A stretch of DNA of 54,400 nt from the NCBI GenBank assembly GCA_001782165.1, contig MFNV01000008.1:1-54400 (forward strand). The letters run 5' to 3'. The notes below the pieces were generated by a model. The model was not told the DNA's origin. It made no database searches and worked only from the letters and a program-made list of their open reading frames with translations. This DNA comes from Candidatus Levybacteria bacterium RIFCSPHIGHO2_01_FULL_41_15. Lineage in GTDB: Bacteria; Patescibacteriota; Microgenomatia; Levybacterales; UBA12049. Below are positions 9,021-50,640 of this stretch, piece by piece; within the stretch, counting starts at the first letter, position 1; each line of letters opens with the position of its first letter. The translations under genes and the position numbers were made by a program.

Positions 9021-9199
9021 CTAAAATTCTAAATCCAAAATTACAAATTCTAAATGGTTCGACAAGCTCACCATCCTGAGCAGCGTCGAAGGATAAATCA
9101 CAAATACGAAATTCTAATATCCGAAATAGTTTTTGAATTTTGAATATTTAAAATTTGATATTATTTGGAATTTGGTGCTTTGAGTTTGGAATTTAAATT
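9021..9199. repeat. Composite intergenic element: heptamer left arm, 49-bp palindromic core, inverted heptamer right arm
   Basis: Core 9050-9098 is identical to 48089-48137 and has 2 mismatches to 21528-21573. Arms are AAATCCA/AAATTCT-type and GGAATTT-type. Confidence 0.9.
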
Positions 9200-9889
9200 A
9201 TGAAATATCATATTTCATTTGATATTGAATTTAGAGAAAACCCGTATAAGGGTAAATATATTGCATTTGAGGGGATTGACGGAGTTGGTAAAACTACCCA
9301 AGCGGCAATCTTAAAAAAATATCTTCAGAAAAAAGGAAGAGAAGTAATTTTTACCAAAGAACCTACGCAAAATCCGCCAATCGGCACATTGATTCACGAT
9401 TTTATAAAAGGCAAAATAAAATTTCCTTCTGTTTCTATCCAATATTTATTTGCGGCAGACCGGGAGATTCATTTAAAAGACACAGTTGAACCGGCTCTTA
9501 AAAATGGAAAAATTGTAATCTCGGACCGCTGTTTTTGGTCTTCGGTTGCCTATGGGATTTTAGACAAAAAAGAAGATTTTTATAAATTAAACAATAGAGA
9601 GATACTTTTGGTTTCGGAAAGTATTTTGTCGATGTACCACCAATTTATAGTACCCGACATAACTTTTTATATTGATGCTTCATCGGATATTGCAATCTCA
9701 AGAATTTCTAAAATGAAGAAAAAGCATGAGTATTATGAAACTCGGGAGAAGTTAAAAAATATTAAGGCAGGATATGACTGGCTCGCTGAAAAATTCCCCA
9801 AGGAGATAGTTGCAATTGATGGGGAGAAACCGGTTGAAGAAGTTACTGCCCAAATTCTAAAGAATTTAGAATTACGATTTAAGATTTAA
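9200..9889 (+). CDS. tmk: Thymidylate kinase
   Basis: FEGIDGVGKTTQ P-loop, KEP, ISDRCFWSSVAY, PDITFYID. Confidence 0.95.
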   Translation: MKYHISFDIEFRENPYKGKYIAFEGIDGVGKTTQAAILKKYLQKKGREVIFTKEPTQNPPIGTLIHDFIKGKIKFPSVSIQYLFAADREIHLKDTVEPALKNGKIVISDRCFWSSVAYGILDKKEDFYKLNNREILLVSESILSMYHQFIVPDITFYIDASSDIAISRISKMKKKHEYYETREKLKNIKAGYDWLAEKFPKEIVAIDGEKPVEEVTAQILKNLELRFKI

Positions 9890-9964
9890 GAATTATGATT
9901 TTGGGACCAAACCCTCCTTCGCATAAAGCTTCGGAAGGGCAAGGAAATTATTTAAAATAAATGT

Positions 9965-10504
9965 ATGATATTAGGGCCGAGGAAGTTATTGGAGTTAGTT
10001 AAAACTAAAAAGCTTGTAGAGGGATTGTCTAAAAGGGAATTGGAAAATCCCGAAGGTGCGGGATTTGATCTAAGACTTGGTGAGGTATATAAAATCAAAG
10101 GCAAAGCATTTTTGGGAGAAAATTCACGCTCAACCCCAGGGGTTGAACTTGTAAAAAAATACGAAAAGGGAAAGAAGACTAAAATAATCATAAAGCCGGG
10201 GGATTTTTATTTGGTTAAGACAATTGAAAAGATAAATCTCCCTTTGGATCTATCTGCAGTCATAATCCCGCGAACCACAACATTTCGCTCGGGAATTTTT
10301 ATCCGCACCGGCCCTGTTCAGCCGGGCTATCAGGGTGAATTGACCTTTGGTCTTAAAAATGAAGGACCGGTGACGGTTGAAATTGAAATGGGAGCGCGGT
10401 TTGTCCATGTAATTTTTCATGAAGTTAAAGGCGGAGGGAGCAAGTATCGCGGGCAATGGCAAGGAGGACGAGTAACCACACGGCGCAAAGAGCGCCAAGT
10501 GTAA
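9965..10504 (+). CDS. Trimeric dUTPase / dCTP-deaminase-like protein
   Basis: GFDLRLGE, PRTTTFRSG, VQPGYQGEL, YRGQWQGG. Same fold as dcd but divergent. Confidence 0.8.
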   Translation: MILGPRKLLELVKTKKLVEGLSKRELENPEGAGFDLRLGEVYKIKGKAFLGENSRSTPGVELVKKYEKGKKTKIIIKPGDFYLVKTIEKINLPLDLSAVIIPRTTTFRSGIFIRTGPVQPGYQGELTFGLKNEGPVTVEIEMGARFVHVIFHEVKGGGSKYRGQWQGGRVTTRRKERQV

Positions 10505-10655
10505 ATCCTAAATCCAAAATTCTAAATCCTAAATAATATCAAAATTACAATGATCAAAATTCAAAAGAATAACATAGAAAACCAAAATAGTTTTGTTATT
10601 TGAAATTTAGAGTTTATAATTTGTTTAGAATTTAGAAATTAGACATTAGAAATTT
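10502..10655. repeat. Composite heptamer inverted-arm intergenic element without the long core
   Basis: TAAATCC/AAAATTC left arm, TTAGAAA/TTAGAGT right arm abutting the thyA ATG. Confidence 0.8.
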
Positions 10656-11615
10656 ATGAAACATCAGGAGTATCAATATTTAAATCTTTTAAAAGATGTA
10701 ATGGAGAATGGTTTTGAAAAGCATGAGTTTAATTCGGGAATTATGTTTAAAAGCGTATTTGGACGGCAAATCCGGTTTGATTTATCAGCTGGTTTTCCTC
10801 TTCTAACAACAAAAAAAGTATTCCTTAGGGGAATTTTACATGAGCTGATCTGGTTTTTAAGAGGCGATTCGAATATAAAATATTTAGTCGATAATGATGT
10901 TCACATTTGGGATGAATGGGGATACAAGCGCTTCAAGGAAGCGCAAAAGAATTCAGAGTTCAGAGTTCAGAATTCAGAATTGACGATGGCAGAATATGTT
11001 GCAAAGATTAAAAGTTTGCCGGCTGATCACAAGTTTGTAAAAAAGTTTGGAGAACTTGGGCCGGTCTACGGGGTTCAGTGGAGGAGATGGCCGGCCTCTG
11101 ACGGACGCAAGATCGATCAGGTGAAGTGGGCGATTGAAAAAATTAAAAAAACGCCGGAGAGGCGGCACATTGTAATTTCTGCTTGGAATCCTGAGTTTGT
11201 TTATGAAATGGCAAAGCCCGGACAATCCGTTGCGCTTCCCCCATGCCATACGCTTTTTCAGTTCAACGTAATAAACGGGAAACTTTCGTGCCAGCTTTAT
11301 CAAAGAAGTGCTGATTTATTTTTGGGAGTTCCTTTCAACATAGCAAGTTATGCTCTTTTTACTATGATTTTTGCCCACCTAACAGGTTATAAACCGGGAG
11401 AATTCGTTCATACTTTTGGTGATGCGCACATTTACTCAAATCACTTTGATCAAGTCAATAAACAGCTAAAAAGAAAACCGCGGCCATTCCCAAAGATGAA
11501 AATAAATCCAGAATTGAAAGATATCGATAAAATAAAATTTGAGGATTTTACTTTGGAAGGCTATGACCCTTACCCTCCGATTAAAGGCGAAGTTACGGTA
11601 GTTGGGGGCTTTTAG
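10656..11615 (+). CDS. thyA: Thymidylate synthase
   Basis: [49 protein letters not shown]. Confidence 0.98.
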
Positions 11616-12157
11616 TCAGCATTTCCATTTCTTGCTAAATATCCGAGTCCTAATTCCCTGAGTCTATCTGGGTTTGATAGCGCTAGATTTCCTCGAATTG
11701 GCCTTTTCACCCAAGCAATTTTTGTGTGCTGGGGGTGCTTCATTGCGTCCTCGAGTGTCTGCGATTGTACTCTTCCTGTGTGTCTTGCATTATGAACTAT
11801 GTGTATTTTTTTGCCCTCGTCAATCCATATCATTGCAATGTGAATTCCCCTAAAATCGTTTTTATTTGTTGGGCAGAGACCTACTATGTCTCCAGTTTGA
11901 GCCTGTGATATGTCTTCAACGAGACTAGTATAATTAGTATCTTCGTATAGATCAGAAGATCTAAGTCGGGGAAGTTCGAAGCCCCTTGCAGAAACGATTG
12001 CATGAACTAAAAGTTCGCAATTTGTGCCTGCCTCTGGATTTGTGAAAACCTCCTCAACGTCAGTCGTATCGGGGTTTCGATCTGGTCTATATGGAATGGA
12101 AATTTCTGTTTTGTTTATGAATGCTTTCCACCTCGCAATTGGTATAATATACTTGTT
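11612..12157 (-). CDS. NlpC/P60-like cysteine peptidase reading frame; start codon non-canonical or frameshifted
   Basis: Hand translation shows the frame is stop-free from 12157 to 11612, but its first ATG/GTG/TTG is at 11833. It contains [41 protein letters not shown] and IVHNA. Confidence 0.6.
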
Positions 12158-12176
12158 TTAAGAAAAAAATGCAATA

Positions 12177-12683
12177 ATGAAACCTAGAATTAGTTTGATA
12201 GTTGCTGTTGATAGTATAAACGGAATCGGAAAAAAGGGTAAAATTCCATGGCATATAAAAGAAGACTTGGTTAGATTAAAGAACTTGACAAAGGGCAGAA
12301 TTGTTATTTTGGGACGCAAGACCTATGAATCAATGGTTTGGTATTACGATCGAAGTGGTCGTCCGATGCCCGCTAAGTTATATATAGTAATTACTCATGA
12401 CGAGGAACATAAGACTGCTCGAGAGAATGTTAAGACGGCTCATTCTCTTGACGAAGCATTAGAAAATGGTCAAGACGAGGAAGTATTCATTCTCGGAGGA
12501 GCGCAGATTTTTCAACAGGCAATTGATATGGGAATTGTTGATAGACTATACTTAACTCAAGTCGAAGGCGACTTTAATTGTGATACGTTCTTTCCTGATT
12601 ATTCAGAGTTTAAGAAAGTTTTAAGCGAGAAAAACGGCGAAGAAAACGTAATTAAATATAAATTCTTAGTTTTGGAAAAATGA
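12177..12683 (+). CDS. folA: Dihydrofolate reductase
   Basis: IVAVD..NGIGKKGKIPW, VILGRKTYES, ILGGAQIF, CDTFFP. Confidence 0.97.
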   Translation: MKPRISLIVAVDSINGIGKKGKIPWHIKEDLVRLKNLTKGRIVILGRKTYESMVWYYDRSGRPMPAKLYIVITHDEEHKTARENVKTAHSLDEALENGQDEEVFILGGAQIFQQAIDMGIVDRLYLTQVEGDFNCDTFFPDYSEFKKVLSEKNGEENVIKYKFLVLEK

Positions 12684-14002
12684 AAAATTTAAAAGCGGTT
12701 GATCCGCAAGTTTACGAACTCATAAAAAAAGAGGAAGAAAGACAAAAGGAGGTTTTGGAAATGATTCCCTCAGAAAACTATGCTTCAAGGGGAGTTCTCG
12801 AGGCTTTGGGAAGTGTTTTTAATAATAAATATTCAGAGGGTTACCCGCTTAAAAGGTATTATCAGGGAAATAAAATAGTAGATAATTTAGAACTTCTTGC
12901 ACAGGATCGAGCAAAAAAATTATTCGGCGTCCCTCATGTAAATGTCCAACCATATTCAGGTTCTCCGGCAAATACAGCAGTCTATTTTGCGCTTTTGGAA
13001 CCTTTAAAAGATAAGATTCTCGGATTATCTTTGGCCTTCGGGGGCCATCTGACTCATGGAGCACCTGTTTCGATTTCGGGAAAATACTTTAAAGTTATAC
13101 CTTATCATTTAAGTGATAAGGGACTGATTGACCATGATGAAGTTGAGAGACTCGCGGTTGAGGAACAACCCAAAATTATAGTCTGCGGCGCAACAGCTTA
13201 TCCAAGAATTATAGATTTTAAAAGATTCGGCGAAATTGCAGAAAAAGTTGAGGCATATCTTTTGGCTGATATTTCCCATATTGCGGGGCTGGTTGTCGGC
13301 GGAGTTCACCCCTCACCTGTTCCCTATGCTCATATAATAATGACGACAACGCATAAGACATTAAGGGGTCCAAGAGGCGCTATGATAATGGTTACAGACA
13401 AAGGTCTTGAGAAGGATCCGGAACTTCCCGATAAGATTGATAAGGCAGTATTTCCAGGTTTGCAAGGGGGACCGCATGATAATCAAACTGCGGCAATTGC
13501 TGTGGCCCTTGAAGAGGCAGGAAAGCCGGAATTTAAAAGATATTCAGAACAAGTTGTAAAAAACGCAAAAACTTTAGCGGACGAACTTTTAAAATTTAAA
13601 TTTGATCTTGTTTCAGGAGGGACCGACAATCACCTCTTGCTTATAGATTTAACTACAAAAAAAGCAAACGGTGCTCTTGCCGCATATGCTTTGGAGGTGG
13701 CAGGAATTGTTGTAAATAAAAACGCAGTGCCAAATGATCCTCTGCCTCCATTTTATCCTTCGGGAATCCGGCTTGGAACCCCTGCAATCACAACGCGCGG
13801 GATGAAGGAAAAAGAAATGATAAAGATTGCGTCTTGGATTAATCTAGTTATTGAAGAAATCAAGGGCGAAGAACTGCCGAAAGAAAAAGAGAGTAGAAGT
13901 TATTTCTGGAAAGAATTCAGAAGAAGAGTTAAAGAAAATGAGAGACTTCTGGAGATAAAAGAAGAGGTAAGAGCATCTTGCTCAAAGTTTCCAGCCCCCT
14001 AA
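12680..14002 (+). CDS. glyA: Serine hydroxymethyltransferase
   Basis: IPSENY, KYSEGYP, GGHLTHG, THKTLRGPRG (PLP lysine), SGIRLGTPA. Confidence 0.98.
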   Translation: MKNLKAVDPQVYELIKKEEERQKEVLEMIPSENYASRGVLEALGSVFNNKYSEGYPLKRYYQGNKIVDNLELLAQDRAKKLFGVPHVNVQPYSGSPANTAVYFALLEPLKDKILGLSLAFGGHLTHGAPVSISGKYFKVIPYHLSDKGLIDHDEVERLAVEEQPKIIVCGATAYPRIIDFKRFGEIAEKVEAYLLADISHIAGLVVGGVHPSPVPYAHIIMTTTHKTLRGPRGAMIMVTDKGLEKDPELPDKIDKAVFPGLQGGPHDNQTAAIAVALEEAGKPEFKRYSEQVVKNAKTLADELLKFKFDLVSGGTDNHLLLIDLTTKKANGALAAYALEVAGIVVNKNAVPNDPLPPFYPSGIRLGTPAITTRGMKEKEMIKIASWINLVIEEIKGEELPKEKESRSYFWKEFRRRVKENERLLEIKEEVRASCSKFPAP

Positions 14003-14226
14003 AAAGTTATTTTAATTTCGAACCCAAAAAGTTCTCCCACTCCGCCAAGACTTCGAGGGACAAGTCCTTTGACCCTGAGCTCAGGACTGAAGGGCTCACC
14101 ATAAGAGAAAAAAGAAGCGAGTTTTGGAAGGAGTTTAAAAGAAAGACCGAGAAAAACAAAAAACTTTTAAAGATTAAGGAAGAAGTAAAAGCATTTTGCC
14201 TAAAATTCCCGTGCCGTAAATTTTAA
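14003..14226 (+). pseudogene. Diverged duplicate of the GlyA C-terminal ~40 codons, interrupted by palindromic repeats
   Basis: REKRSEFWKEFKRKTEKNKKLLKIKEEVKAFCLKFP aligns with GlyA KESRSYFWKEFRRRVKENERLLEIKEEVRASCSKFP. Confidence 0.8.
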
Positions 14227-15065
14227 GTGGCTTTGGGAAGTTTTCTTGCTTTAAAAATCGTCCATCCCCGGGGAATCGTGTCGGATTTTCTTCGCTCAAG
14301 CATCGGTTCAACAGCCCCAACTAATAAATCTTTTGCAAGATCAAGTTCAACATCGGGAAGAGCAATTCTTGCGAACTCGTCATAACGACAGATTGCTTTT
14401 ACATCTTCTTTGTCCATTTGTGCTGTATGAAAGTAAACTTCAATATCTGATAAGCCGGCTGAGACGAGCATATTTACATAATCATCCACGCTGTATTGTC
14501 GTAAGGGGACAGGATTTGGTATATCATTTAGTCCGTGATTTTCTCGCGCAGCTTTTCTTGCGAGTGCCGTTAAAATCCCCCATGAATGCGCTGATTTTTC
14601 CGGATATGCATGAGTTGTTTCGTAGGCCGTATTTATAAGAAGAGTCGCACCGTAATCCATGATTCGAGCAGATTCTCTAGTGGCTGCCGGTGCATCTGTA
14701 AGATGGATAGCGTTTGCGAAGGTTACCAATTGTGCCCATCCGTTTTTTAAAGGAATATTTTCTGCAGGGGCATTTATAAAAAGCATCTGACCGTCGAAAT
14801 TCCTGAATGCTGATTTTGCGGCCTTGAGCGCACTTTCGTCTATATCATACCCTCTTACTTGAAAATCTCGAATTAACAATCCTTGCTCAAGCATTTGGGT
14901 GATCATTGCTCCAGTACCTGTCGCTATGTCGACAGCATATTTAACTGGTTTTTTAACAAGTCGAATGGTTTCTCTGTTTATCCCTATATAAAATGGGCGT
15001 CTAGTAAATTCTTCGTAGGAATGCGGTTGTTTTGCTCCTTGTCCCTGCTCGGCTCTTGTTGTCAT
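14223..15065 (-). CDS. Class I SAM-dependent methyltransferase
   Basis: AVDIATGTGA motif I, GYDID, AENIPL, FANAIHL. Likely start ATG 15065. Confidence 0.82.
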   Translation of the reverse strand: MTTRAEQGQGAKQPHSYEEFTRRPFYIGINRETIRLVKKPVKYAVDIATGTGAMITQMLEQGLLIRDFQVRGYDIDESALKAAKSAFRNFDGQMLFINAPAENIPLKNGWAQLVTFANAIHLTDAPAATRESARIMDYGATLLINTAYETTHAYPEKSAHSWGILTALARKAARENHGLNDIPNPVPLRQYSVDDYVNMLVSAGLSDIEVYFHTAQMDKEDVKAICRYDEFARIALPDVELDLAKDLLVGAVEPMLERRKSDTIPRGWTIFKARKLPKAT

Positions 15066-15074
15066 AATGCGGGC

Positions 15075-15125
15075 AGTATAGCAGAGGATTTGTTGTTTGA
15101 CAACAGGAAAATTCTTTGTTAGGAT
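15075..15125. promoter_or_regulatory. Overlapping divergent sigma70 promoters sharing one -35 region
   Basis: Plus strand TTGACA(15097-15102)-17-TAGGAT(15120-15125). Minus strand TTGTCA(15103-15098)-17-TATACT(15080-15075). Both have an extended -10 TG. Confidence 0.7.
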
Positions 15126-15134
15126 TTTAAAATT

Positions 15135-16439
15135 ATGGGAAGAGGTCCAGAGTATTTGGCAGAAAGAGATCAAGAGCTAGAAGAAAGACAAGCAAGAAGA
15201 GTAGTTGTTACTGGAATGGGAACGGTTAACCCACTCGGTTTAAGTGTTCCGGATTTTTGGAAAAATTTAATTGCTGGAAGATCAGGTCTATCAAACATAG
15301 AGCTCCCCTTTACAAACGTGAAAGTTGCAGGAATTGTGCGTGATTTTAAGCCGGAGGTAGTGCTTTCCGGCCTTGTTCCTCTTAAACATTTAAAGAGACT
15401 TTCGCGCCCAGTACAATTTGCAGTCGCCGCAGTCAAAGAGGCTCTCTTACAAGCAGGACTTTTGGATGAATTCCGAAAAATATCAGAAAAGATAGATCTT
15501 ACTCGGTTTGGAACAATCATAGGAACAGGAATTGGAGGAGCTGTCGATATTATAGACGCTAAAGATAAACTTGATAGGGGAGAAGAAGATGTTAAGCCTT
15601 CAGATCTTTTCCGTTCTGAACCCGAAAGAGTAGCAACTGCTGTAAGTATGATCTTTGGTCTTAAAGGGCCGGTACAAGCACCAGCTGCTGCATGTGCTTC
15701 CGGAAATGTGGCCGCAACAAACGGATTTAATGAAATTTATCTTGGAAATGCAGATATAATGGTTGTTGGAGGAAGCGAATCTTGCATACATGGTGTTACT
15801 CTTGCGTTATTTGAGTCGGCAACCGCGCTATCGCTTCAGACCGATCCTAGAAAAGCAAGCAGGCCATTTGATAATGCACGCAGTGGATTTGTGATGAGCC
15901 AGGGGGCAGGGGTATATGTTCTTGAATCTCTTGAGCATGCTAAGAGACGTGGCGCAAGAATATATGCCGAATTTGTAGGTTATGGAAATACTGGCGATGC
16001 TCACCATGATACCGTACCAAGCGAAGAGGGACAAAGAAGGGCATTAAGACTTGCAATGAAAAAAGTAAAAATTCCCAATCATCAAAGAATCTATGTAAAT
16101 GCCCACGGTACTGGTACTAGATCTGGTGATCCAGTAGAAATCTCTGCGATAAGAAGGGAACTGCCCGATAAAGAAATTGATGTTAGTTCTTCAAAAAGCG
16201 AAATAGGGCATACTATGGGAGCAGCCGGAGCGATTGAGTCAATTGTCTGTATACAAGCACTTAATGAAGAGATTCTTCCGCCGACTATTAATCTTAGTGA
16301 TCCAATCTCAGAGGCAGAAGGAGTAAATCTCATTCCTCATGAAGCTCAGCTTGCAAACGGAGTTGAGGTTGCCGTAAATGATTCTTTTGGTTTTGGTGGA
16401 ATAAATAGTGTTTTAGTATTCAAGAGGTTTGAAGAATAA
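15135..16439 (+). CDS. fabF: Beta-ketoacyl-ACP synthase II family (KAS II)
   Basis: VVVTGMG, AACASG (catalytic Cys), SRPFD..R.GFV, DAHH, NAHGTGT, KSEIGH, NDSFGFGG. Confidence 0.93.
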   Translation: MGRGPEYLAERDQELEERQARRVVVTGMGTVNPLGLSVPDFWKNLIAGRSGLSNIELPFTNVKVAGIVRDFKPEVVLSGLVPLKHLKRLSRPVQFAVAAVKEALLQAGLLDEFRKISEKIDLTRFGTIIGTGIGGAVDIIDAKDKLDRGEEDVKPSDLFRSEPERVATAVSMIFGLKGPVQAPAAACASGNVAATNGFNEIYLGNADIMVVGGSESCIHGVTLALFESATALSLQTDPRKASRPFDNARSGFVMSQGAGVYVLESLEHAKRRGARIYAEFVGYGNTGDAHHDTVPSEEGQRRALRLAMKKVKIPNHQRIYVNAHGTGTRSGDPVEISAIRRELPDKEIDVSSSKSEIGHTMGAAGAIESIVCIQALNEEILPPTINLSDPISEAEGVNLIPHEAQLANGVEVAVNDSFGFGGINSVLVFKRFEE

Positions 16440-16649
16440 TTTGACTTTTTGATAAATTCTTCCTACATTAAAATTAGTAGATAAGCTTCTTGAATCTTTC
16501 CAGGAGAAAAGTACCTCGCCAAGTAATAAAGCGAATCAAAAATCCACTCAAAACAACTCGTTCTCTCAAAATTTATCGACCAGATCTTCGACATCACCAA
16601 TCCGAACTATTCTGGGTCCGCAACAAAATACAACTTGGAGAATCTAGGG

Positions 16650-39332: not shown

Positions 39333-39336
39333 TAGG

Positions 39337-42918: not shown

Positions 42919-43812
42919 ATGAGTTTGTCCATCGGGATTGTGGGGCTTCCAAATTCCGGGAAATCGACATTATTTAATGCGCTTCTTAAAAGGCAGATCG
43001 CCCAAGTGGGGGAGTATCCATATACCACGATTGAGCCGAATGTGGGAGTGGTCGAGGTGCCGGATGAAAGACTTGACAAGATTTCGGAAATTTCAGGAAT
43101 CACAAAAAAAGTTCCGGCAGGAATTAAATTTATTGATATTGCTGGTCTTATTAAAAACGCTCACAAAGGAGAGGGGCTTGGAAATAAGTTTCTGGGGCAC
43201 ATTCGGGAAGTTGACGCGATTGTTCATATTGTACGCGCTTTTGATTCTTCGGCTAGCTCAGGACAAGCAATCCCACATGTAATGAGTAATATTGATCCGG
43301 TCCGTGATATCGAAGTTGTCAATCTTGAATTAGAGCTTGCTGGAATTAAGAAACCGGCAATCTATGTTTTAAATGTCTCTGAAAGTGATTTGAAAAGAGA
43401 TTTTAATCTCCCCTTTGAGTATATTAAGATCAGTGCAAAACTTGAGGCGGAATTATCAGATCTTTCGGAAAAAGAGCAAAAGGAATATCTAAAAGAACTT
43501 GGTGTTAGCGAGTCAGCCCTTGATCAAATCATTCTTGTATCCTACAAACTTTTAGATCTTATTACTTTATTTACAATCGCTGGTGGTCGGCAGATCCAAG
43601 CCTGGCCTATTAAAAAAGGAACAAAGGCAACTGGGGCGGCAGAAATGGTTCATACCGATTTTGAAAAAAAATTTATAAAAGCAGAAGTCGTCTCTTTTGA
43701 AGATTTTGTTTCGAATAATGGTTGGAAGGGGAGCAGGGAAAAAGGAAAAACGCGAATCGAAGGCCGAGAATACATCGTAAAAGACGGGGATATTATGGAG
43801 TTTAAAATTTAA
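42919..43812 (+). CDS. ychF: YchF/Obg-family ATPase, shortened
   Basis: GIVGLPNSGKST, YPYTTIEPN, DIAGL, G.GLGNKFL.HIRE, TGS tail GREYIVKDGD. Likely start ATG 42919. Confidence 0.93.
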   Translation: MSLSIGIVGLPNSGKSTLFNALLKRQIAQVGEYPYTTIEPNVGVVEVPDERLDKISEISGITKKVPAGIKFIDIAGLIKNAHKGEGLGNKFLGHIREVDAIVHIVRAFDSSASSGQAIPHVMSNIDPVRDIEVVNLELELAGIKKPAIYVLNVSESDLKRDFNLPFEYIKISAKLEAELSDLSEKEQKEYLKELGVSESALDQIILVSYKLLDLITLFTIAGGRQIQAWPIKKGTKATGAAEMVHTDFEKKFIKAEVVSFEDFVSNNGWKGSREKGKTRIEGREYIVKDGDIMEFKI

Positions 43813-44357
43813 GGGGATATGAGGGTATAGTCGGAAACGAGGATGATTCTTTCGATCTCATTCTGCGAGTTTAGTTTAAAACCTGTGACATATTTATCAG
43901 AGGAAATTCCGACAATCATGTCCTGCGAAAAATTCTGTGGGTTGTTTTGAATAAGTTTTGCACGGACAGAACTGCCTTCCGAAAAATCCCAGGATCCTTT
44001 GCTTCCCTCAAGATATGACATTTGTGCCGTTGCTTTTGTTTTGGTGACAGTTCCGCAGCATTCAGTTGCGTACAAGATTAAGACAACGTCATCTGTCATA
44101 TAACCTTCCAAAGCTTGATAGTTTTTGCTATTTATAGAGGCTTTTATATTTTCCGAAACCCTGTCCTTGCTATTTCTGGGAGTTGGAATTGGGGAAGTTT
44201 TTTCCTGGGAGGCTGTGGGCGCTTGGTTTTGATACTCCGCAGGCGCGGGCGTCGGCTCGATAGATGCTTTATTCTGGTTTTTTCCAAAATAATAAGCTCC
44301 TGTTAAAAGCCCGATCAAAAAGATAGCAACGCCCAGACCCAAGATGAAGTTTTTCAC
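43809..44357 (-). CDS. Exported hypothetical protein with P/T linker
   Basis: N-terminal TM helix, PTP linker, CC motif. Confidence 0.7.
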   Translation of the reverse strand: MKNFILGLGVAIFLIGLLTGAYYFGKNQNKASIEPTPAPAEYQNQAPTASQEKTSPIPTPRNSKDRVSENIKASINSKNYQALEGYMTDDVVLILYATECCGTVTKTKATAQMSYLEGSKGSWDFSEGSSVRAKLIQNNPQNFSQDMIVGISSDKYVTGFKLNSQNEIERIILVSDYTLISP

Positions 44358-44521
44358 AGCTTACTTATACCATAAATTAAGATGAAAAACAAAACCACCG
44401 AGGTGGCAAAGCTGTTTCACCACATCAAACGTGGTTTCACCTGGAAGGTGCACGACTTGCCCTACTTAGATTTTTGCTCTACCCCTTGCTTTTTGATTTT
44501 TTAATATGGTAGGATTGGGAA

Positions 44522-44935
44522 ATGCGAGCGTACGAATTAATATTAGTCTTAAGATCGTCTTTAAAAGATGATGAAAGGAAAAAACTTCTTGGGACGGTTA
44601 AGGATCTTTTGGGGAAACCTGAAATAACCCGTGAGGATGAGTGGGGACAAAAGCCTCTATCTTACCCTATTAAAAGACAGATCGCAGGTTTTTATGTTGA
44701 CATAGATTTTGAAACAGAAACAGAAATCCCAAATGATTTTGAAAAAAAACTTCTGGCAAATGATAATGTCTTAAGACACCTGCTACTACGAAATAAAAAA
44801 TTAAAAATAAAAAATAAAAAAGAGGGCACAAAACAGAGTTTAAAAGTTAAAGAGAAAGAAGAAAAAGAGTTTGCCAAACCCAAAAGATCTATAAAAAAGG
44901 CAAAGAAAGCTACAAAAAAGACTAGAAAGAAATAG
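44522..44935 (+). CDS. rpsF: 30S ribosomal protein S6
   Basis: YELILVL, WGQKPLSYPIK, VLRHLL. Confidence 0.95.
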   Translation: MRAYELILVLRSSLKDDERKKLLGTVKDLLGKPEITREDEWGQKPLSYPIKRQIAGFYVDIDFETETEIPNDFEKKLLANDNVLRHLLLRNKKLKIKNKKEGTKQSLKVKEKEEKEFAKPKRSIKKAKKATKKTRKK

Positions 44936-45012
44936 TTTACAAATTGTTAAAATTGTTATATTGTTGAATTGTTAAACTAGCTACTAGCAATTAGTAACTA
45001 GCCACTAGTTTT

Positions 45013-45561
45013 ATGGCAAGAAGTCTTAACAGAGTTCAATTAATCGGAAACCTCACGAGAGATCCTGAGCTTCGGTATACACCCAACGGAACTGCAGTTT
45101 GTTCTTTTGGTGTTGCTACAAACAGAAGTTGGACAACCGAATCTGGAGAAAAAAGAGAGGAAGCAGAATTTCATAGAATTGTGGCATGGAACAAACTTGC
45201 CGAAATCTGCTCTCAATTTTTAGTAAAGGGAAGGAAAGTTTATCTTGAGGGAAGGCTTTCGACAAGAACATGGAACGCTCAAGACGGGACACAGAAAAGC
45301 ACAACAGAAATAATAGTTTCTGACATGATCCTTTTGGATTCAAGAAGAACCGAGGAGGAAAAAATTGATGAAGAACCCGAGAGTCAGAGCTTAGAAAAGC
45401 CGGACAAGACTGCTAGCCTTGATGTGAAGCGGGCCGGGCAGGCAGGGAGTCAAAGTTTAAAAACAGAAAAAAATTTAAAGAAAAAGAAAACGAAGGAAGA
45501 CTCAAAGGAAGAGGATGAAGGCAAAGATGAGGACGTAGCCCCCGAAGATATCCCCTTTTAA
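45013..45561 (+). CDS. ssb: Single-stranded DNA-binding protein
   Basis: LNRVQLIGNLTRDPELRYT, EGRL.TR.W, C-terminal DIPF. Confidence 0.98.
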   Translation: MARSLNRVQLIGNLTRDPELRYTPNGTAVCSFGVATNRSWTTESGEKREEAEFHRIVAWNKLAEICSQFLVKGRKVYLEGRLSTRTWNAQDGTQKSTTEIIVSDMILLDSRRTEEEKIDEEPESQSLEKPDKTASLDVKRAGQAGSQSLKTEKNLKKKKTKEDSKEEDEGKDEDVAPEDIPF

Positions 45562-45732
45562 CTAGTAACTAGAAACTAGCCACTAGTAACTAGTTTTAAT
45601 ACTTAATGCCCAACACTGATTTAGGTTGTTGTCAAACCTGAAATAAATTGCTAAAATTATATACTCGCTTACTATCTACCGTCTACGGTATACAGCTGTA
45701 GTCAGTAGTTTGAAAGCTGAAAGCTTTTTATT

Positions 45733-45975
45733 ATGGTAAAGAAAAGAAGACAGATAAGGAAAATAAGAGTGAAGGAATCCTGCTATTTTTGTAAGGAAGG
45801 TAAAGAACCAACCGTTCGTGACGTATCGGTCTTACGAAGATATCTGACAGAAAGAAATAAAATAATATCACGTGCCCGAACAGGAATTTGCGCCAAACAT
45901 CAGAGGAATCTTACAAAAAGCATAAAACATGCAAGGCATTTAGCTCTCTTACCCTTTATTGCAAAAGAAATCTAA
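45733..45975 (+). CDS. rpsR: 30S ribosomal protein S18 (Cys-containing form)
   Basis: CYFC, RYLTER.KI..R..TG.CAKHQR, ARHLALLPF. Confidence 0.95.
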   Translation: MVKKRRQIRKIRVKESCYFCKEGKEPTVRDVSVLRRYLTERNKIISRARTGICAKHQRNLTKSIKHARHLALLPFIAKEI

Positions 45976-46010
45976 AATTTACCAATAACTAATAACTAAT
46001 AATTATATAA

Positions 46011-46769
46011 ATGGCTTCTCTGTCTATACCGCTATCAAATGGTTTTAGCCCAAAAGTAAAAAAAGATGATAAAGTAGTTGTCGGCCAAGTCATAGCCTCA
46101 AGAATCTTAAAGGGAAAAGATCAGGAAGTAAATGTTTCAAGAATCTTGGGTTTACCTGCCTCCCAAATTTCAAAAGTAATTACCAAAAGACCGGGAGACA
46201 GGATTGAGGAGGGAGAGGTTATTGCTCTTAAAAAAGGAGCCTTAGGAGTTGGGGGAAAAAAAGTTGTAAGCCCGGTTGGAGGGACTCTTTTTGGAATTGA
46301 CGAGGAGAAAGGCGCAATTTTCATAAGATCAAATCTTGAGGAAGAAACGCAAGACTTATCTTCTCCTGTTGATGGAAAAATTTTGCTGTGCGATAATGAA
46401 AAAATTACCATTGAGAGCGATAAAGATATTGTTCTTGCAAAAGAGGCAGCAGGGGAAGCAGAAGTTCAGGGAGAAGTCCATCAAATAAAAGGGGAGGATG
46501 TTGATCCTAAGACCCTGGATCTTAAAATAAAAGGGAAAATTGTTTTGGGCAGATTTTTCTCAAGAGAGGCTCTGTCAAAATCGATAGGTCTTGGGGCTTT
46601 GGGAATAATTTCAGAAAATATAAAAGAGGAGGATCTTGAAGAGTATATAAAAAGAATCGTAAAGACACCAGTATTTTTGATAGATGAAAAGGCTTTTGAA
46701 GAAGTTTCAAGACATAGCGGGAAAAAAGTCTATCTTTCTCCTTTAAAAAAATTAATTATGTTTTTATAA
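46011..46769 (+). CDS. Hypothetical protein with barrel-sandwich-hybrid-like repeats
   Basis: VKKDDKVVVGQVIA, PGDRIEEGEVIA, SPVGG, SPVDG. Confidence 0.65.
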   Translation: MASLSIPLSNGFSPKVKKDDKVVVGQVIASRILKGKDQEVNVSRILGLPASQISKVITKRPGDRIEEGEVIALKKGALGVGGKKVVSPVGGTLFGIDEEKGAIFIRSNLEEETQDLSSPVDGKILLCDNEKITIESDKDIVLAKEAAGEAEVQGEVHQIKGEDVDPKTLDLKIKGKIVLGRFFSREALSKSIGLGALGIISENIKEEDLEEYIKRIVKTPVFLIDEKAFEEVSRHSGKKVYLSPLKKLIMFL

Positions 46770-46771
46770 AT

Positions 46772-48064
46772 ATGGAAAGAACCAGAAAAATTCAGATTAT
46801 TGTTTTGATACTCGTCGCATTCTTCATAGGTTACTGGGCAGGTACAGTAAAAATCTCCTTTGACTGGAAAAATTATAAACCCGTTTTATCGATTTCAGGC
46901 AAACAACCGCCGCCATCCCTGTCGAATCTTGATTTTTCAAACTTCTGGGCGGTGTGGGAAAATGTTGAGAGCAAATACTATGATAAATCAAAAATTGATC
47001 CCTCTAAAATGCTAAACGGAGCAATAAACGGCATGCTTGCGACACTTTCCGATCCGTATACAGTATATTTGCCTCCTGTCTCAAATACGGATTTCAAGCA
47101 GGGGCTTGCGGGACAATTTGAAGGAATTGGTGCCGAGCTTGGCTTGAAAGATAAAAAAATCACAGTAATTTCTCCTTTGGATGACAGCCCGGCCCAGAAA
47201 GCTGGTATAAAACCTGAAGATATAATTCTTAAAGTAGACGGTGAGTCAACCGAGGGATGGAGCATATCACAGGCAGTTTCAAAAATCAGGGGGAAAAGGG
47301 GAACACCCGTTGTCCTGACTGCTCTTCATAAAAACACAAAAAATCCAACCGATATAAAAATAATAAGAGATACCATAACTGTCAAGAGCGTTGACGGATA
47401 CGTCAAAAAGATAAGCGAGATTAAAGGAATTAAGAAAACTTCTGTTCTATCTTCTCATCAAAACGATGAAATAATGTACATTAAGCTTGCGCAATTTGGG
47501 GATCAGACCAATAAAGATTGGCTTGCGCTTGTAAACAGCCTGAATTTAAAAGCTCAAGACCCTTCGGCAAGCTCAGGGCAAGATAAAAATTTTAGGGGAA
47601 TAATTTTGGATCTTCGCAACAATCCGGGAGGTTATCTTACAGACGCATCCTTTATTGCAGGCGAATTTTTAAGAGAAGGCCTTCCGGTTGTTATACAGGA
47701 GCAAGGAACAGGGGATAGGACAACCATATCGGTTTTGCGAAGAGGTCTTTTTCTAAGCTTTCCTCTTGTTGTTCTTATCAATAAAGGAAGCGCTTCGGCA
47801 AGTGAAATAGTATCAGGAGCGCTTAGGGATTATGAGAGGGCAAAGCTTGTAGGAGAGACGACATTCGGAAAGGGAACAATACAACAGGCAGATGATCTTG
47901 GCAACGGAGCAGGTATTCATATAACAATTGCCAAATGGCTCACACCCAAAGGCAATTGGGTAAACGGGAAAGGTTTGGAACCTGACATTTCTGTTAGTCT
48001 TGATAATAAAGACCAAAGTCACGACAGCCAGCTTGAAAGGGCAATAGAAGAGCTGGTAAAATAA
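46772..48064 (+). CDS. ctpA: C-terminal processing peptidase S41 with PDZ domain
   Basis: DPYT, GIGAEL, LDLRNNPGG, SASASEI, TFGKG. Confidence 0.93.
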   Translation: MERTRKIQIIVLILVAFFIGYWAGTVKISFDWKNYKPVLSISGKQPPPSLSNLDFSNFWAVWENVESKYYDKSKIDPSKMLNGAINGMLATLSDPYTVYLPPVSNTDFKQGLAGQFEGIGAELGLKDKKITVISPLDDSPAQKAGIKPEDIILKVDGESTEGWSISQAVSKIRGKRGTPVVLTALHKNTKNPTDIKIIRDTITVKSVDGYVKKISEIKGIKKTSVLSSHQNDEIMYIKLAQFGDQTNKDWLALVNSLNLKAQDPSASSGQDKNFRGIILDLRNNPGGYLTDASFIAGEFLREGLPVVIQEQGTGDRTTISVLRRGLFLSFPLVVLINKGSASASEIVSGALRDYERAKLVGETTFGKGTIQQADDLGNGAGIHITIAKWLTPKGNWVNGKGLEPDISVSLDNKDQSHDSQLERAIEELVK

Positions 48065-48240
48065 ACTCTAAATCCAAAATCACAAATCCTAAATGGTTCG
48101 ACAAGCTCACCATCCTGAGCAGCGTCGAAGGATAAATTCAAATGTTCAAAATAATAAATTCAAAACGTTTTGTATTTTGGTTATTTGATTTTTAATATTA
48201 ATTGGAATTTGGTGCTTTGAATTTGGGATTTAAATTGATT
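48065..48240. repeat. Composite intergenic element with palindromic core
   Basis: Core 48089-48137 is identical to 9050-9098. Confidence 0.9.
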
Positions 48241-49341
48241 ATGAGACGTTTAATTATTTCAGTATTGATACTCGTAGTAATTTTATTTGGTTTGAGTGCT
48301 TTAGTAAATAAATTCTCCGACATTAATCTGCCCAAAAGTGAAGTACAGCCTGAAAAAGTAAAAATTGTAAAGGAAGAGTCGGTTGCTGTCGATGTCGTTA
48401 AGAGGGTCGGACCCTCTGTTGTTACCGTTGTTGAAAGTTCTCAAAGAAGTTTTGGATTCGGTTCATTTGATGTTCCTGATACAGAAGAAAGAAATATCGG
48501 TTCAGGTTTCATTATCTCCGAAAACGGCTTAATAGTTACAAACAAACATGTTGTATCAGATAAAGAAGCAACTTACCAAATAGTAACAAGCGACGACAAA
48601 AAATACTCGGTTCAAAGAATTTTTAGAGACCCCTTAAATGATATTGCAATTCTTAAGGTAAATTTTTCCGATAATCCGGGGACTCGACTTAAGTCTGTCG
48701 AGCTGGGGGATTCATCAAAACTTGAAGTAGGACAATTCGTTATTGCCATCGGAACTGCACTTGGGAAATTCAGAAATACTGTAACGACAGGGGTCGTCTC
48801 GGGTTTGGGCCGGGGAATTACCGCAGGATCGGAGTTTGAGGGATTTGTTGAAAGGCTTGATAATGTTATCCAGATATCAGCGGCTGTTAATCCGGGCAAC
48901 TCAGGGGGTCCTTTGGTAAACTCCGCAGGACAGGTAATAGGGGTGAATACTGCAATTGCAAGGGGAGGTCAAAACATCGGATTCGCGCTTCCTATAAATA
49001 CAGTAAAAGAGGCGGTTTCAAATTTCAACGAACATGGAGAAATAGTAAGGCCCTATTTGGGAGTAGTTTACAGGATAGTAACAAGAGATGTTGCGCTTCT
49101 TAATGAAGTTCCGCAGGGAGCACTCGTTCAAGAGGTAATTGAAGGGTCGGGAGCAGACAAAGTGGGAGTAAGACAAGGGGATATAATAACGACGGTTGAG
49201 GGAAAAAAAATCGAGGAGATAAATGATTTGGCAGACACAATAAAAGATAAAAAGGTGGGAGATCGTCTGACTCTTGTCATTTGGAGGGATGGAAAAACTC
49301 AGGAAGTTAGAGCAACTTTGTCATCCGCCCCGAACAACTAG
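48241..49341 (+). CDS. htrA: HtrA/DegP-family serine protease, one PDZ domain
   Basis: GSGFII, TNKHVV, DIAILK, AVNPGNSGGPL. Likely start ATG 48241. Confidence 0.93.
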   Translation: MRRLIISVLILVVILFGLSALVNKFSDINLPKSEVQPEKVKIVKEESVAVDVVKRVGPSVVTVVESSQRSFGFGSFDVPDTEERNIGSGFIISENGLIVTNKHVVSDKEATYQIVTSDDKKYSVQRIFRDPLNDIAILKVNFSDNPGTRLKSVELGDSSKLEVGQFVIAIGTALGKFRNTVTTGVVSGLGRGITAGSEFEGFVERLDNVIQISAAVNPGNSGGPLVNSAGQVIGVNTAIARGGQNIGFALPINTVKEAVSNFNEHGEIVRPYLGVVYRIVTRDVALLNEVPQGALVQEVIEGSGADKVGVRQGDIITTVEGKKIEEINDLADTIKDKKVGDRLTLVIWRDGKTQEVRATLSSAPNN

Positions 49342-49374
49342 TAACTAGTATCTAGTAACTAGTATAATAGTGGA

Positions 49375-50454
49375 ATGGTTAGAATCCAGAAAAACATTTC
49401 ACTTAAAAATCTCAGCAATTACAGAATCGGAGGTCCTGCCTCTTTCTTTGCAGAAGTTAAGAATCCCGAAGAACTTTCGCAAGTTTTAAAAGACCGAAAG
49501 AAACTTGAAAACCCAAAAATTTTTGTTCTTGGAGAGGGAACAAATGTTCTGTTCAAAGACAGTGGATTTGACGGATTGGTAATTAAGAATAAAATTAACG
49601 GAATTAAGATATTAGACGACAGAGAGTCAAAGAGTTCCTCCTTCGCTAAAGCTTCGAAGGACAAGCAGAGAGTCAAAGGATCAGAGAGTCAGAGAGTCAA
49701 AGTTGGGGCAGGAGTTCTGTTGGAGGATTTGCTTGCCTTCTGCATTGAAAATTCTTTGTCTGGTTTTCAGTGGGCAGGAGGACTTCCGGGGACATTAGGC
49801 GGAGCAGTCCGGGGGAATGCCGGCGCATTTGGAGGAGAAATAAAAGACAACATAATAGAGGTAGAAAGTTTGGATAGCAGTACCTTAGAAATTAAGAAAA
49901 GAAGCGTGAATCAGTGCAAATTTGGATACAGGACAAGTGTTTTTAAGAGTCAAAAAGAGTCAGAGTTTAAGAGAGTCAGAGAGTCAAAGAGTCAGAGTGA
50001 GAAAGAGTCAGAGTCTAAAAGAGCTGCGGGACAGGAGATTATCATTTCCGCAACTTTAAGTTTAACAAAGCGTAATAGAGATGATATCGCTTCGAAAATT
50101 CAGGAGAAAATAGATTACAGGAACTTAAAACATCCTCTTGAATATCCGAATATAGGAAGTATTTTCAAAAATATTCCCGTAGAGAAAGTTCCTCAAAAAA
50201 TATTAAAACAATTAAGAGACTCGATAAAAAATGATCCTTTTCCGATTCTACCAACAGCAAAGCTTCTGGCTGTCGCGAGTCTAAAAGGGAAAAGACAGGG
50301 AGGTGCAATGGTTTCCAAGAAGCATCCTAATTTTATTATAAATTTTAACAATGCCACATCAGAGGATGTAAAGACTCTAATCCACAAATTAAAAGAGATT
50401 ATAAAATCAAAATACGGGATAGAACTGGAAGAAGAAATCTCAAACCTCGGGTGA
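49375..50454 (+). CDS. murB: UDP-N-acetylenolpyruvoylglucosamine reductase, with two repeat insertions
   Basis: IGGPA, LGEGTNVL, PGTLGGAV.GNAGAFG, FGYRTS.F, GSIFKN, HPNFIIN. Confidence 0.95.
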   Translation: MVRIQKNISLKNLSNYRIGGPASFFAEVKNPEELSQVLKDRKKLENPKIFVLGEGTNVLFKDSGFDGLVIKNKINGIKILDDRESKSSSFAKASKDKQRVKGSESQRVKVGAGVLLEDLLAFCIENSLSGFQWAGGLPGTLGGAVRGNAGAFGGEIKDNIIEVESLDSSTLEIKKRSVNQCKFGYRTSVFKSQKESEFKRVRESKSQSEKESESKRAAGQEIIISATLSLTKRNRDDIASKIQEKIDYRNLKHPLEYPNIGSIFKNIPVEKVPQKILKQLRDSIKNDPFPILPTAKLLAVASLKGKRQGGAMVSKKHPNFIINFNNATSEDVKTLIHKLKEIIKSKYGIELEEEISNLG

Positions 50455-50640
50455 AATCCTAAATCCAAAATTACAAATAACAAATAATATCTAAATTCAA
50501 ATAATCAAAATCCTAAACTTTTAAAATTTTTAAAATTGGAATTTTGAATTTGTCCCGATGGTAGTTTCCAGTCGGGATCCCGCATTTGCGGTGATAATTT
50601 ATTTAGAATTTAGTATTTTGAACTTAGTATTTGCCTAGCC
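50455..50640. repeat. Composite intergenic element carrying a second core type
   Basis: Heptamer arms plus CGGGATCCCGCATTTGCGG (50573-50591), the reverse complement of 34150-34168 inside recR. Confidence 0.85.

Follow-up and report, generated by a model that had tools for sequence, protein, structure and literature searches.

Gene-less hairpin elements with heptamer-repeat arms in operon spacers of a Levybacteria genome and their probable relation to PF05635 cassettes

Repeat elements between the housekeeping genes of a Levybacteria contig

The window analyzed here comprises 54,400 nt (contig MFNV01000008.1, positions 1 to 54,400) of Candidatus Levybacteria bacterium RIFCSPHIGHO2_01_FULL_41_15, an ultra-small groundwater bacterium of the Levybacteria (Microgenomates, candidate phyla radiation, CPR). 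Its GC content is 39%, and the encoded Zwf is 68–76% identical to proteins named Levybacteria. According to Pfam, nearly all genes are housekeeping genes on the + strand, arranged in the runs dcd, tmk, thyA, folA, glyA, rpsB-tsf-frr-rseP and pgl-zwf-gnd, and further HIT-rpsU-ybeY-dnaX, prs-recR, cysS, rpsF-ssb-rpsR and ctpA-htrA-murB. The window begins within a 16S rRNA gene, whose 3′ end has the usual anti-Shine-Dalgarno sequence CCUCC; despite this, no more than 12 of the 54 genes have a 4-mer Shine-Dalgarno (SD) motif in front. The subject of this report is a set of repeat elements of 70–190 nt with inverted arms of 25–40 nt, built largely from tandem 7-nt units. They are located strictly in stop-to-start spacers, mostly between co-oriented genes. 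A search with Rfam at gathering thresholds yielded only rRNA and tRNA matches in the window, and for the copy at 9016 a search with permissive E-values gave nothing below E 1.

Seven copies share a modular scaffold

Seven copies, starting at 9016, 10499, 21496, 28056, 29286, 48058 and 50452, align as a single modular scaffold, which bears out the order of heptamer arm, optional core and inverted arm proposed in an initial annotation of this DNA. The left arm consists of A/C-rich heptamers (AAATCCN, AAATTAC) and frequently begins in or just after the upstream stop codon. Next come the GC-rich core of 39 nt, where present, and an inner arm, then an apex (CAAAAC..GTTTTG), a second inner arm and the G/T-rich right arm, which bears ATTTGGTGCTT and stops 3–12 nt before the ATG. 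This right-arm word, already noticed as recurrent in the initial annotation, is exact at four sites (9170, 21646, 28165, 48207), and the identity of 49 nt claimed between 9050–9098 and 48089–48137, 39 kb apart, was exact as well. The core is present in three of the seven copies. Copy 28056 has an exact 39-column gap instead, copy 50452 a different GC-rich insert, and copy 29286 no apex. Since the core is optional, the inserts differ and the apex is missing in one copy, the element is modular: its AT-rich foldback contains small nested hairpins that are GC-rich.

Folding of each spacer was expressed as the z of its RNAfold energy against dinucleotide shuffles. Homology was assessed using a profile of the post-core part of 19 copies, all outside the window, which originate from 13 unnamed metagenome contigs and six named metagenome-assembled genomes (MAGs), i.e., two delta proteobacterium/Deltaproteobacteria-like, two Desulfobacterales, one Syntrophobacterales and one unclassified bacterium. 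All features are given on the + strand. Full composite copies are found between dcd1 (stop 9013–9015) and tmk (ATG 9200) at 9016–9199 (z −4.0; profile E 1.5e-8 for 9095–9195), between pgl and zwf at 21496–21675 (z −3.9; E 6e-4 for 21602–21670), and between ctpA and htrA at 48058–48240 (z −2.2; E 2.8e-5 for 48139–48233). The dcd1/tmk copy is composed of a left arm (approx. 9024–9055), the core GGTTCGACAAGCTCACCATCCTGAGCAGCGTCGAAGGAT (9056–9094), an inner palindrome (approx. 9095–9160) and a right arm with ATTTGGTGCTT (9161–9194). Its core is identical to that of the ctpA/htrA copy (48095–48133); the pgl/zwf core (21534–21572) differs by C-to-T changes at two positions, of which one lies in the loop and the other, in the inner stem, results in a G-U pair. 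Core-less copies were recognized between dcd2 and thyA at 10499–10655 (by alignment; z −2.0 for 10502–10655; E 0.013 for 10542–10633), where the stop codon TAA belongs to the first unit, TAAATCC, and between the DHH and HIT genes at 28056–28194 (z −3.2 for 28035–28194), the latter with the best profile E of 2.2e-9 (28080–28193). The ybeY/dnaX copy at 29286–29397 is short and has no inner palindrome (by alignment; z −2.7 for 29286–29404; E 2e-3 for 29293–29390). Finally, the convergent spacer between murB and an SdrD-like gene contains a copy at 50452–50640 (by alignment; z −3.8 for 50455–50647; E 9e-3 for 50450–50549) with a distinct 42-nt GC-rich insert at 50552–50593 in its right half.

Heptamer periodicity and hairpin folding

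Tandem 7-nt units are in clear excess over other periods. Lag-7 identity of at least 80% was found in 51 windows of 28 nt, compared to 0–1 for the lags of 4–12 otherwise, and a threshold of 75% returned 22 period-7 arrays, but 0–3 arrays for periods 5, 6, 8, 9 and 10. Tandem 7-nt units, intergenic position and excess over other periods are the features by which heptamer repeats of bacteria are recognized. Likewise, inverted termini and small size are as in miniature inverted-repeat transposable elements (MITEs), and a long stem formed by the inverted termini is a trait of rRNA intervening sequences.

The initial annotation had ascribed one hairpin architecture to eleven spacers. This was true for nine of them, which fold better than their shuffles (z −2.0 to −4.0), but not for 34776–34865 and 44936–45012; 12 control spacers without such elements ranged from −1.1 to +1.6. 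The arms are more complementary than shuffled controls. The further claim that the right arm runs straight into the start codon without an SD applies to most genes downstream of an arm, but rpsU and dnaX have an SD placed after the arm.

Homologous copies in other phyla

The profile, though built from copies outside the window, matches the window copies including core-less ones with E-values of 2e-9 to 1e-2; nothing at E ≤ 10 was detected in the block-shuffled window. Furthermore, it matches 19 of 119 named loci that carry the core, which belong to Desulfobacterota MAGs, one Gammaproteobacteria MAG and two unclassified bacterial MAGs. Right arms of the window and of the contigs L087, L040 and L236 are approximately 85% identical, judged by eye in the alignment. 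Compensatory changes are present in 5 of 22 consensus stem pairs, and the word GGTGCTT is more conserved than its pairing partner. In these alignments, homology extends among the seven window copies and from them to copies in unrelated organisms. Together with the fold scores and the empty junctions in relatives (see below), this agrees with the amplified, dispersed family of long imperfect hairpins that had been postulated. No profile match at E ≤ 0.1 was obtained in approximately 150 kb from relatives, defined here as contigs encoding Zwf homologs of 79–84% identity; by this measure, the scaffold is absent from their syntenic DNA. A neutral spacer cannot remain alignable across phyla. The distribution fits a horizontal arrival and a burst in this Levybacteria lineage.

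Gene-bearing relatives encode a PF05635 protein

On the metagenome contig L217, an open reading frame (ORF) of 122 aa (6943–7311) belongs to PF05635 (23S_rRNA_IVP; E 9.8e-15, above the curated cut-off) and sits between arms of the same heptamer type. A Deltaproteobacteria MAG (L072, 4350–4712) encodes a protein 64% identical to it (tblastn E 4e-43). The latter gene is located between CGAAATT/ATTTCGG arms, wedged by two co-oriented genes, and a scaffold copy lies 500 nt off. The gene starts with ATGACC[AG]AAAT[AT]CAAAA..AAACC, and the protein with MT[EK]IQN..KP. A conserved module of the gene-less copies, CAATGACCRAAATTCAAAAT..CAAACC, equals the first codons of this PF05635 gene type; as CAATGACCGAAATTCAAAAT..CAAACC it comes after the core and pairs with GGTCATTG in the other arm. 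The contig L236 retains 19 codons (MTKIKNSKPVYDLEERTFQ, then stops), fused to an L217-type 3′ flank (CCCAAGTTT), and is, reading from this junction, an internal-deletion intermediate. All fetched DNA contains 40 such start modules, of which two belong to full genes, 37 are truncated to 6–58 codons and one is part of an unrelated gene. In 35 of 120 metagenome copies, the ATG module is found at most 50 nt from the core. Gene-bearing copies, the deletion intermediate and gene-less copies form one series. A tblastn search of 1.8 Mb of fetched loci with two PF05635 queries, which is insensitive for such a diverse family, recovered beyond the queries only L072 and the L236 fragment.

A further PF05635 gene was found in a Levybacteria relative (L134, 55–426; E 5e-17). 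It is framed by ACAGNNN/NNNCTGT arms and is inserted in the 16S rRNA gene near the position of a different insertion in the window’s 16S, as far as the contig shows. The 16S rRNA gene of the window (1–916) itself bears insertions and no 23S gene comes after it. Every assembly breaks at this gene, and contig L257 begins 740 nt further upstream than the window. To our knowledge, no function is known for PF05635, which is a very large protein family.

The 39-nt core is cosmopolitan

The core forms two stems, TTCGAC/GTCGAA and GCTCA/TGAGC, and its loop CCATCC is complementary to both flanks. The pattern TTCGACAAGCTCA-N6-TGAG-N4-GTCGAA was detected in at least 119 stretches of named genomes. Among the matches listed are NC10, Desulfobacterota, Ignavibacteria, Planctomycetota, Acidobacteriota, Nitrospirota, Omnitrophota, Elusimicrobia, Zixibacteria, Saccharibacteria, Berkelbacteria and Gammaproteobacteria, as well as another Levybacteria genome and one Methanosarcinales MAG. 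When AAAT was required on both sides, at least 119 metagenome stretches were found. Only three stretches matched in 2.9 million viral contigs, and phages are, therefore, no evident vector.

The six loop bases vary between copies (CCACCC, CCATCC, GGATGG, CGGCCC and others). Nevertheless, the loop is complementary to four out of four flanking bases in 55 and 66 of 123 copies for the two flanks, respectively, and to at least three out of four in over 90%. Tandem copies with a period of 39 nt are present in L090 and L124. Because of this complementarity to both flanks and the tandem period, the core has the appearance of an inverted half-unit doublet, the half-unit being made of a short GC clamp and a 13-mer. 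About 15 of the 123 core copies lie in a period-7 context, and 0–2 in contexts of period 6 and 8. Half-units also occur alone in the window: one (ACCC TTCGACAAGCTCA GGACAGG; 25258–25282) is located directly upstream of a proS-like ATG, and another (CCC TTCGGCAAGCTCA GGGCAAG; 47558–47582) lies in frame within ctpA, where it is read as DPSASSGQD. A full-text literature search found no match to the core sequence or its pseudo-peptides. On a metagenome contig (L235), approximately 970 nt around a core match form an open frame of 323 codons with window-type copies in frame, as well as the GC-rich insert of copy 50452 in reverse. The frame resembles a membrane protein (..NLSNWNLFRIWNFEFEI..), so that hairpin elements would be translated as protein loops in this case.

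Empty and differently filled junctions in relatives

The comparison of empty and filled sites suggested in the initial annotation revealed an empty site at dcd1/tmk. In contigs of five relatives from two lineages, both genes overlap at ATGA (...GAAAAATGAAACAT...). The window has TAA, 184 nt and ATG instead, with the dcd1 stop at an unchanged codon position (ancestral GAGGAAAAATGA vs. GAAGAAAGATAA). Further spacers are short in relatives, too: 25 nt (L008) and 51 nt (L005) between the DHH and HIT genes compared to 160 nt in the window, 36 nt compared to 196 nt between HIT and rpsU, and 28 nt compared to 137 nt between zwf and the tRNA-binding gene. Other junctions are filled differently. Between frr and rseP, the window has an AGAATTC hairpin, L005 a CCTAATT hairpin, L009 and L129 a GC-rich palindrome, and L008 only 12 nt; between pgl and zwf, the composite element of the window is replaced by a CCTAATT hairpin in L006 and by a GC-rich hairpin repeat in L134. 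Other junctions are short in L008 and L009, and are occupied by CCTAATT heptamers or GC hairpins in L005, L006 and L134. L005 and L006 contain two hairpins with arms near-identical over more than 30 nt. The density of period-7 arrays is 4.0 per 10 kb in the window and thus four to eight times higher than in L008, L129, L132 and L134 (79–82% relatives; 0.5–0.9), and approximately three and two times higher than in L009 (1.4) and L005 (2.1), respectively. Empty orthologous sites exist and the arms pair better than shuffled sequences, and therefore the initial annotation holds in both respects.

Target-site duplications, which the initial annotation had proposed to look for, were not clearly seen. 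At dcd1/tmk, the single site with a known ancestral state, ATGA became ATAA...184 nt...ATGA, perhaps a 4-nt duplication. An ATAA stop context as the general footprint of an ATGA duplication was rejected, as 4 of 9 cases are not above the expectation for AT-rich DNA. Logan contigs covering 18900–26900 showed nothing more than extra depth at repeat spacers, with no clean empty-site joint.

Further insertions were noticed at other junctions. The tmk|dcd2 spacer (9881–9978) contains a GC-rich hairpin insert (AAACCCTCCTTCG...CTTCGGAAGGG...), on whose two sides the start of dcd2 is imperfectly duplicated over 14 nt (ATGATTTTGGGACC / ATGATATTAGGGCC); in relatives, this spacer measures 5 nt or is taken up by another element of 140 nt. 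A second, unrelated palindromic family (..GGAACTAAATTTTTTCTTGGACCCGCA..CGAAAAAATTTGTTCC..) is common to Levybacteria lineages and occupies differing junctions, i.e., 28555–28620 in the window, RRF|RseP in L009 and Tmk|Dcd2 in L008 and L134. At tsf|frr, where the window has 8 nt, L005 (852–1250) and L006 (1422–1820) carry a PF13366 gene (PD-(D/E)XK, GxxExxY) flanked by the short inverted words TCCGAATAT / ATATTCGGA; no PF13366 gene is present in the window. L008 and L009, whose Zwf proteins are identical, are 100% identical over 11.4 kb from zwf, but approximately 81% upstream (tmk to thyA), where the gene content also differs. This pattern is due to either inter-lineage recombination or chimeric assembly.

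Orientation and RNA signals

G-U counts and fold energies did not reveal a bias for the sense strand: the antisense strand is more stable by >5 kcal/mol in 6 of 12 elements, the sense strand in 2 of 12. In other phyla, the element is in sense orientation relative to the genes at five loci, in antisense at five and between convergent genes at three. Nor was a bias of orientation relative to local GC skew found (12 of 20 composite loci, 67 of 119 core loci). No RNA sequencing run was found to contain the window. Scans of 8301–28300 and 31001–51000 detected no terminator-like site (GC-rich stem and T run) in any element there; the copy at 29286–29397 lies between the two scanned regions. The sole promoter-like match inside an element in a sigma-70 scan of the same regions was at 10593–10620. 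The occurrence in either orientation and the missing advantage of the sense fold make a sense-specific role as the family’s purpose, including one in initiation, less likely, and the lack of promoter- or terminator-like signals in the arms also argues against an orientation-specific role in initiation.

Interpretation as probable miniature derivatives of a PF05635 cassette

We consider it likely that these spacers are gene-less miniature members of a foldback family found across phyla, the full form of which is a PF05635 cassette. This full-length cassette would probably consist of a gene for an Avd-like four-helix bundle with inverted arrays of 7-nt units on either side. Its design is, in all likelihood, that of the ORF-bearing intervening sequences of rRNA, here placed between the stop and start codons of neighboring genes. 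The window elements look like stripped-down selfish cassettes rather than ordinary regulatory DNA.

The family would have entered the Levybacteria lineage horizontally and then multiplied at the DNA level, with copies persisting at gene junctions only. Heptamers containing TAA (TAG in the other arm) would provide a stop in every frame within three units, and therefore an insertion would alter the upstream protein by a few residues at most and leave the downstream ATG intact. The hairpin may then hold the upstream stop near the downstream ATG. In the operon transcript, the arms are expected to pair into a long A-U-rich stem, which RNase III probably cuts by analogy with rRNA intervening sequences; such a cut would split the transcript and harm neither gene. 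A benefit for the host, if any, would be secondary.

Several points weigh against this interpretation. No copy varies among near-identical populations, since four other assemblies of the same population (L001–L004) are identical to the window across the elements; movement is, therefore, inferred rather than observed. A clear target-site duplication was not found, nor a consistent repeat at the other sites, and no mobilizing enzyme was identified. There is no PF05635 gene in the 54-kb window, and the remnant in the window copies no longer has its ATG, so that their link to the gene is based on scaffold homology. L217, the sole gene-bearing copy with a core, has a nested arrangement which is hard to parse. 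Other heptamer hairpins (AGAATTC, AATTGTT) resemble the family in architecture only, MAG binning might misassign some of the taxa, and cutting of the stems by RNase III is an analogy.

A more far-reaching version, which we regard as unlikely, would unite heptamer-armed PF05635 cassettes and their gene-less derivatives into one pan-bacterial mobile class. Here, an Avd-like pentamer would recognize its own arms by their 7-nt units, and a reverse transcriptase, perhaps that of the diversity-generating retroelement (DGR) in this genome, may act on the transcribed hairpin, which would explain the confinement to transcribed gene junctions. The cosmopolitan core (the TTCGACAAGCTCA doublet) would then be a second, smaller parasite nested in the first.

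Alternative explanations

Elements selected by the host at the RNA level could act as RNase III sites, as 3′ stabilizers in the manner of repetitive extragenic palindromes (REP), bacterial interspersed mosaic elements (BIME) or the intergenic sites of phage T7, or in stop-start coupling without SD. Confinement between stop and start of mostly co-oriented genes, stable folds, some compensatory pairs and the mostly absent SD after the arms despite CCUCC in the 16S would all suit such a function. TAACTGA heptamers are likewise located just upstream of starts with few ribosome-binding sites (PMC4679880). However, the same operons have spacers of 0–50 nt or overlaps in relatives, a given junction is taken by unrelated elements depending on the lineage, the sense fold has no advantage, and in other phyla the element occurs in either orientation relative to the genes, which leaves this explanation doubtful on balance. 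A role as protein-binding array, with the 7-nt units serving as sites of a regulator, a nucleoid protein or the PF05635 pentamer, would account for a period that stays constant while the repeated word changes, for the four or five units per array and for a GGTGCTT better conserved than its partner. In Geobacter, “global regulator binding sites” of four or five heptanucleotide repeats are annotated in pairs (PMC2700814). Nevertheless, no candidate binding protein is encoded in the window and the same genes lack the sites in relatives. As an explanation of its own it seems quite improbable, though it is compatible with selfish cassettes rather than opposed to them.

Growth of simple sequences in situ, i.e., replication slippage as in short tandemly repeated repetitive (STRR) sequences with palindromes arising by chance or local inversion and no copying between loci, may explain why many heptamer types occur side by side and why a variable loop of ThyA has a heptamer array. 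The perfect arrays (AATGGCA)4.4 and (AACAATC)4.7 in the DHH gene indeed demonstrate that slippage operates. In contrast, slippage predicts neither the identity of 49 nt and the scaffold homology over 39 kb, nor homologous copies in other organisms with E-values down to 2e-9, nor shared non-repetitive modules (core, CAATGACC, GGTGCTT), nor a deletion series from a gene-bearing form. As a general account it is very improbable, and for the AAATCC/GGTGCTT family it is already contradicted. A classical MITE, mobilized in trans by a DDE or IS200/IS605-type transposase, is the least credible of the possibilities considered and in our view extremely improbable. It would have inverted arms, small size, AT-richness, many copies, filled as well as empty sites and a core resembling an inverted REP doublet in its favor. 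Yet gene-bearing relatives (L217, L072) encode PF05635 and not a transposase, no consistent target duplication was seen (at most ATAA...ATGA at dcd1/tmk), the arms are arrays of varying unit number instead of fixed termini, and orientation shows no GC-skew bias. The label “MITE-like” of the initial annotation is thus appropriate for gene-less, internally deleted derivatives (L217 to L236 to short copies) but not for the parent. The window elements are probably miniature derivatives of an intervening-sequence-like cassette and not classical MITEs.

Relation to known repeat systems

The element is a miniature form of an intervening-sequence-like foldback located outside rRNA. In the 23S rRNA intervening sequences of Coxiella burnetii and Leptospira (S23p/PF05635), a small PF05635 gene is likewise enclosed by stem-forming inverted repeats, and their sporadic distribution suggests horizontal spread, as in the window family. 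Intervening sequences with an S23p ORF have a 28-bp inverted-repeat stem at their borders and are cleaved by RNase III (PMC4990558). 23S_rRNA_IVP proteins are encoded in rRNA insertions of CPR bacteria (PMC11270868), and PF05635 resembles the DGR protein Avd (PMC10053308). The exact rRNA intervening-sequence form with heptamer arms is present in the 16S rRNA of the Levybacteria relative L134. The window copies differ in that they are found in mRNA spacers between protein genes rather than in rRNA helices, have no ORF in a stem of tandem 7-nt units, and are multi-copy in one genome; excision by RNase III is assumed here by analogy only.

Heptamer repeats are known from several bacteria. Published examples are TAACTGA heptamers adjoining start codons with a puzzling distribution across phyla in Beggiatoaceae, Cyanobacteria and Bacteroidetes (PMC4679880), GGGNATC heptamers between co-oriented ORFs in Xanthomonas and Nostoc (PMC4692102), and annotated paired arrays of four or five heptanucleotides in Geobacter (PMC2700814). 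These repeats, including STRR, share with the window elements 7-nt units with approximately four or five per array, an intergenic position favoring co-oriented genes beside start or stop with few SD downstream, and a patchy distribution across phyla. In the parts of the literature available, they are reported as direct repeats or G-quadruplex formers, and no parent gene is mentioned. In the window, however, two such arrays make up the arms of a single foldback element with a gene-bearing parent and nested GC-rich modules. The units AAATCCN, AGAATTC and AACTAG from a non-cyanobacterial host are presumably not among the published STRR units.

REP sequences and their inverted doublets (REPINs) resemble the family in being short palindromic units, intergenic and amplified within a genome; REPINs are the replicating form and are tied to REP-associated tyrosine transposases (RAYTs) (PMC3116915). 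The likeness of REPINs concerns the 39-nt core only, which resembles an inverted doublet of a half-unit with a 13-nt loop and also occurs as lone half-units. Whereas REP families are species- or genus-specific and RAYT-tied, the core 13-mer is identical across many phyla, and no RAYT gene exists within the 54-kb window. MITEs and palindromic intergenic repeats (Correia, enterobacterial repetitive intergenic consensus (ERIC), Rickettsia palindromic element (RPE)) are likewise miniature, gene-less, multi-copy, hairpin-forming and derived by internal deletion, but the parent in our case has no transposase, the heptamer termini vary and a clear target duplication was not seen. The small dispersed repeats (SDR) of Nostoc, described by Elhai et al. 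in 2008, are reportedly similar to the window family. SDR and palindromic repeats share GC-rich modules nested in arrays and some copies in frame within genes. Genes for Ssn GIY-YIG nucleases, which are flanked by the target repeats of the enzyme (PMC11893778), and PF13366 cassettes are likewise small repeat-flanked genes at junctions, but of other protein families, and no nuclease is associated with the window family.

In the literature searched, as far as it was available, gene-less PF05635 derivatives in operon spacers, a shared scaffold or the 39-nt core were not reported, and the portions at hand offer no origin for the heptamer repeats of cyanobacteria, Beggiatoaceae, Xanthomonas and Geobacter. 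Three results emerge from the window and its relatives: a deletion series that leads from a gene-bearing cassette to a gene-less hairpin, homology of a non-coding scaffold, with statistical support, between a CPR bacterium and Desulfobacterota and Gammaproteobacteria MAGs, and, at dcd1/tmk, an ATGA gene overlap as a clean empty site. Taken together, these three results tie the repeats to PF05635 and point to horizontal spread of a non-coding element of approximately 150 nt. In practice, the elements enlarge spacers, break assemblies at repeats and create false small ORFs (“QMVRQAHHPE...”, “PSTSSGQ” peptides). They may also reshape operon transcripts in streamlined genomes.

Hairpins and arrays of other types

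Besides the seven scaffold copies, the window contains elements with other units. A hairpin of AGAATTC / GAATTCT units between frr and rseP (19511–19608; z −2.7) has an arm which begins within the last codons of frr. Upstream of the rpsU SD, a short arm-type array of ATTTAGA units is located at 28630–28710 (repeat families D2 and D13); its spacer (28525–28720; z −2.0) also contains the unrelated palindromic repeat mentioned above, which adjoins the array. The hairpin between prs and recR (33555–33624; z −3.8) has 8-nt units (AATTGTTA / CAATAGAG; period 8 in Tandem Repeats Finder). The two spacers that failed the fold test are of different kinds. At 34776–34865, a weak member is a palindrome of A and T only that contains period-7 arrays (inverted repeat I6, 80% complementary), for which the antisense fold reaches −15.7 kcal/mol, but the sense RNA is not stable (z −0.3). 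Between rpsF and ssb (44936–45012; z +0.3), Tandem Repeats Finder detected two direct arrays, the 8-mer AAATTGTT (4.4 units) followed by the 7-mer AACTAGC (4.9 units), which are mutually unrelated and do not form inverted arms. In the spacer 45562–45732 (z −2.3), a TAACTAG array is present at the left end only and inverted arms were not demonstrated.

A period-7 stretch at 9860–9901 was rejected as an element, as it is conserved tmk coding sequence (LELRFKI vs. LDLRFKN in L009). Further period-7 arrays within coding sequences were found in thyA (10948–10981), rseP (19841–19874), the DHH gene (27171–27201 and 27329–27361), dnaX (29596–29618) and prs (33063–33124). In ThyA, the AGAATTC array codes for a 10-aa insert in a loop of variable length among relatives, and the two perfect arrays of the DHH gene are located in variable loops as well. 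The DHH gene additionally contains a 23-aa insert (VPPAKPSRRREASLWRSAVATLG; 27789–27860, computed from the alignment), which is missing in both relatives and is probably another in-frame GC-rich repeat.

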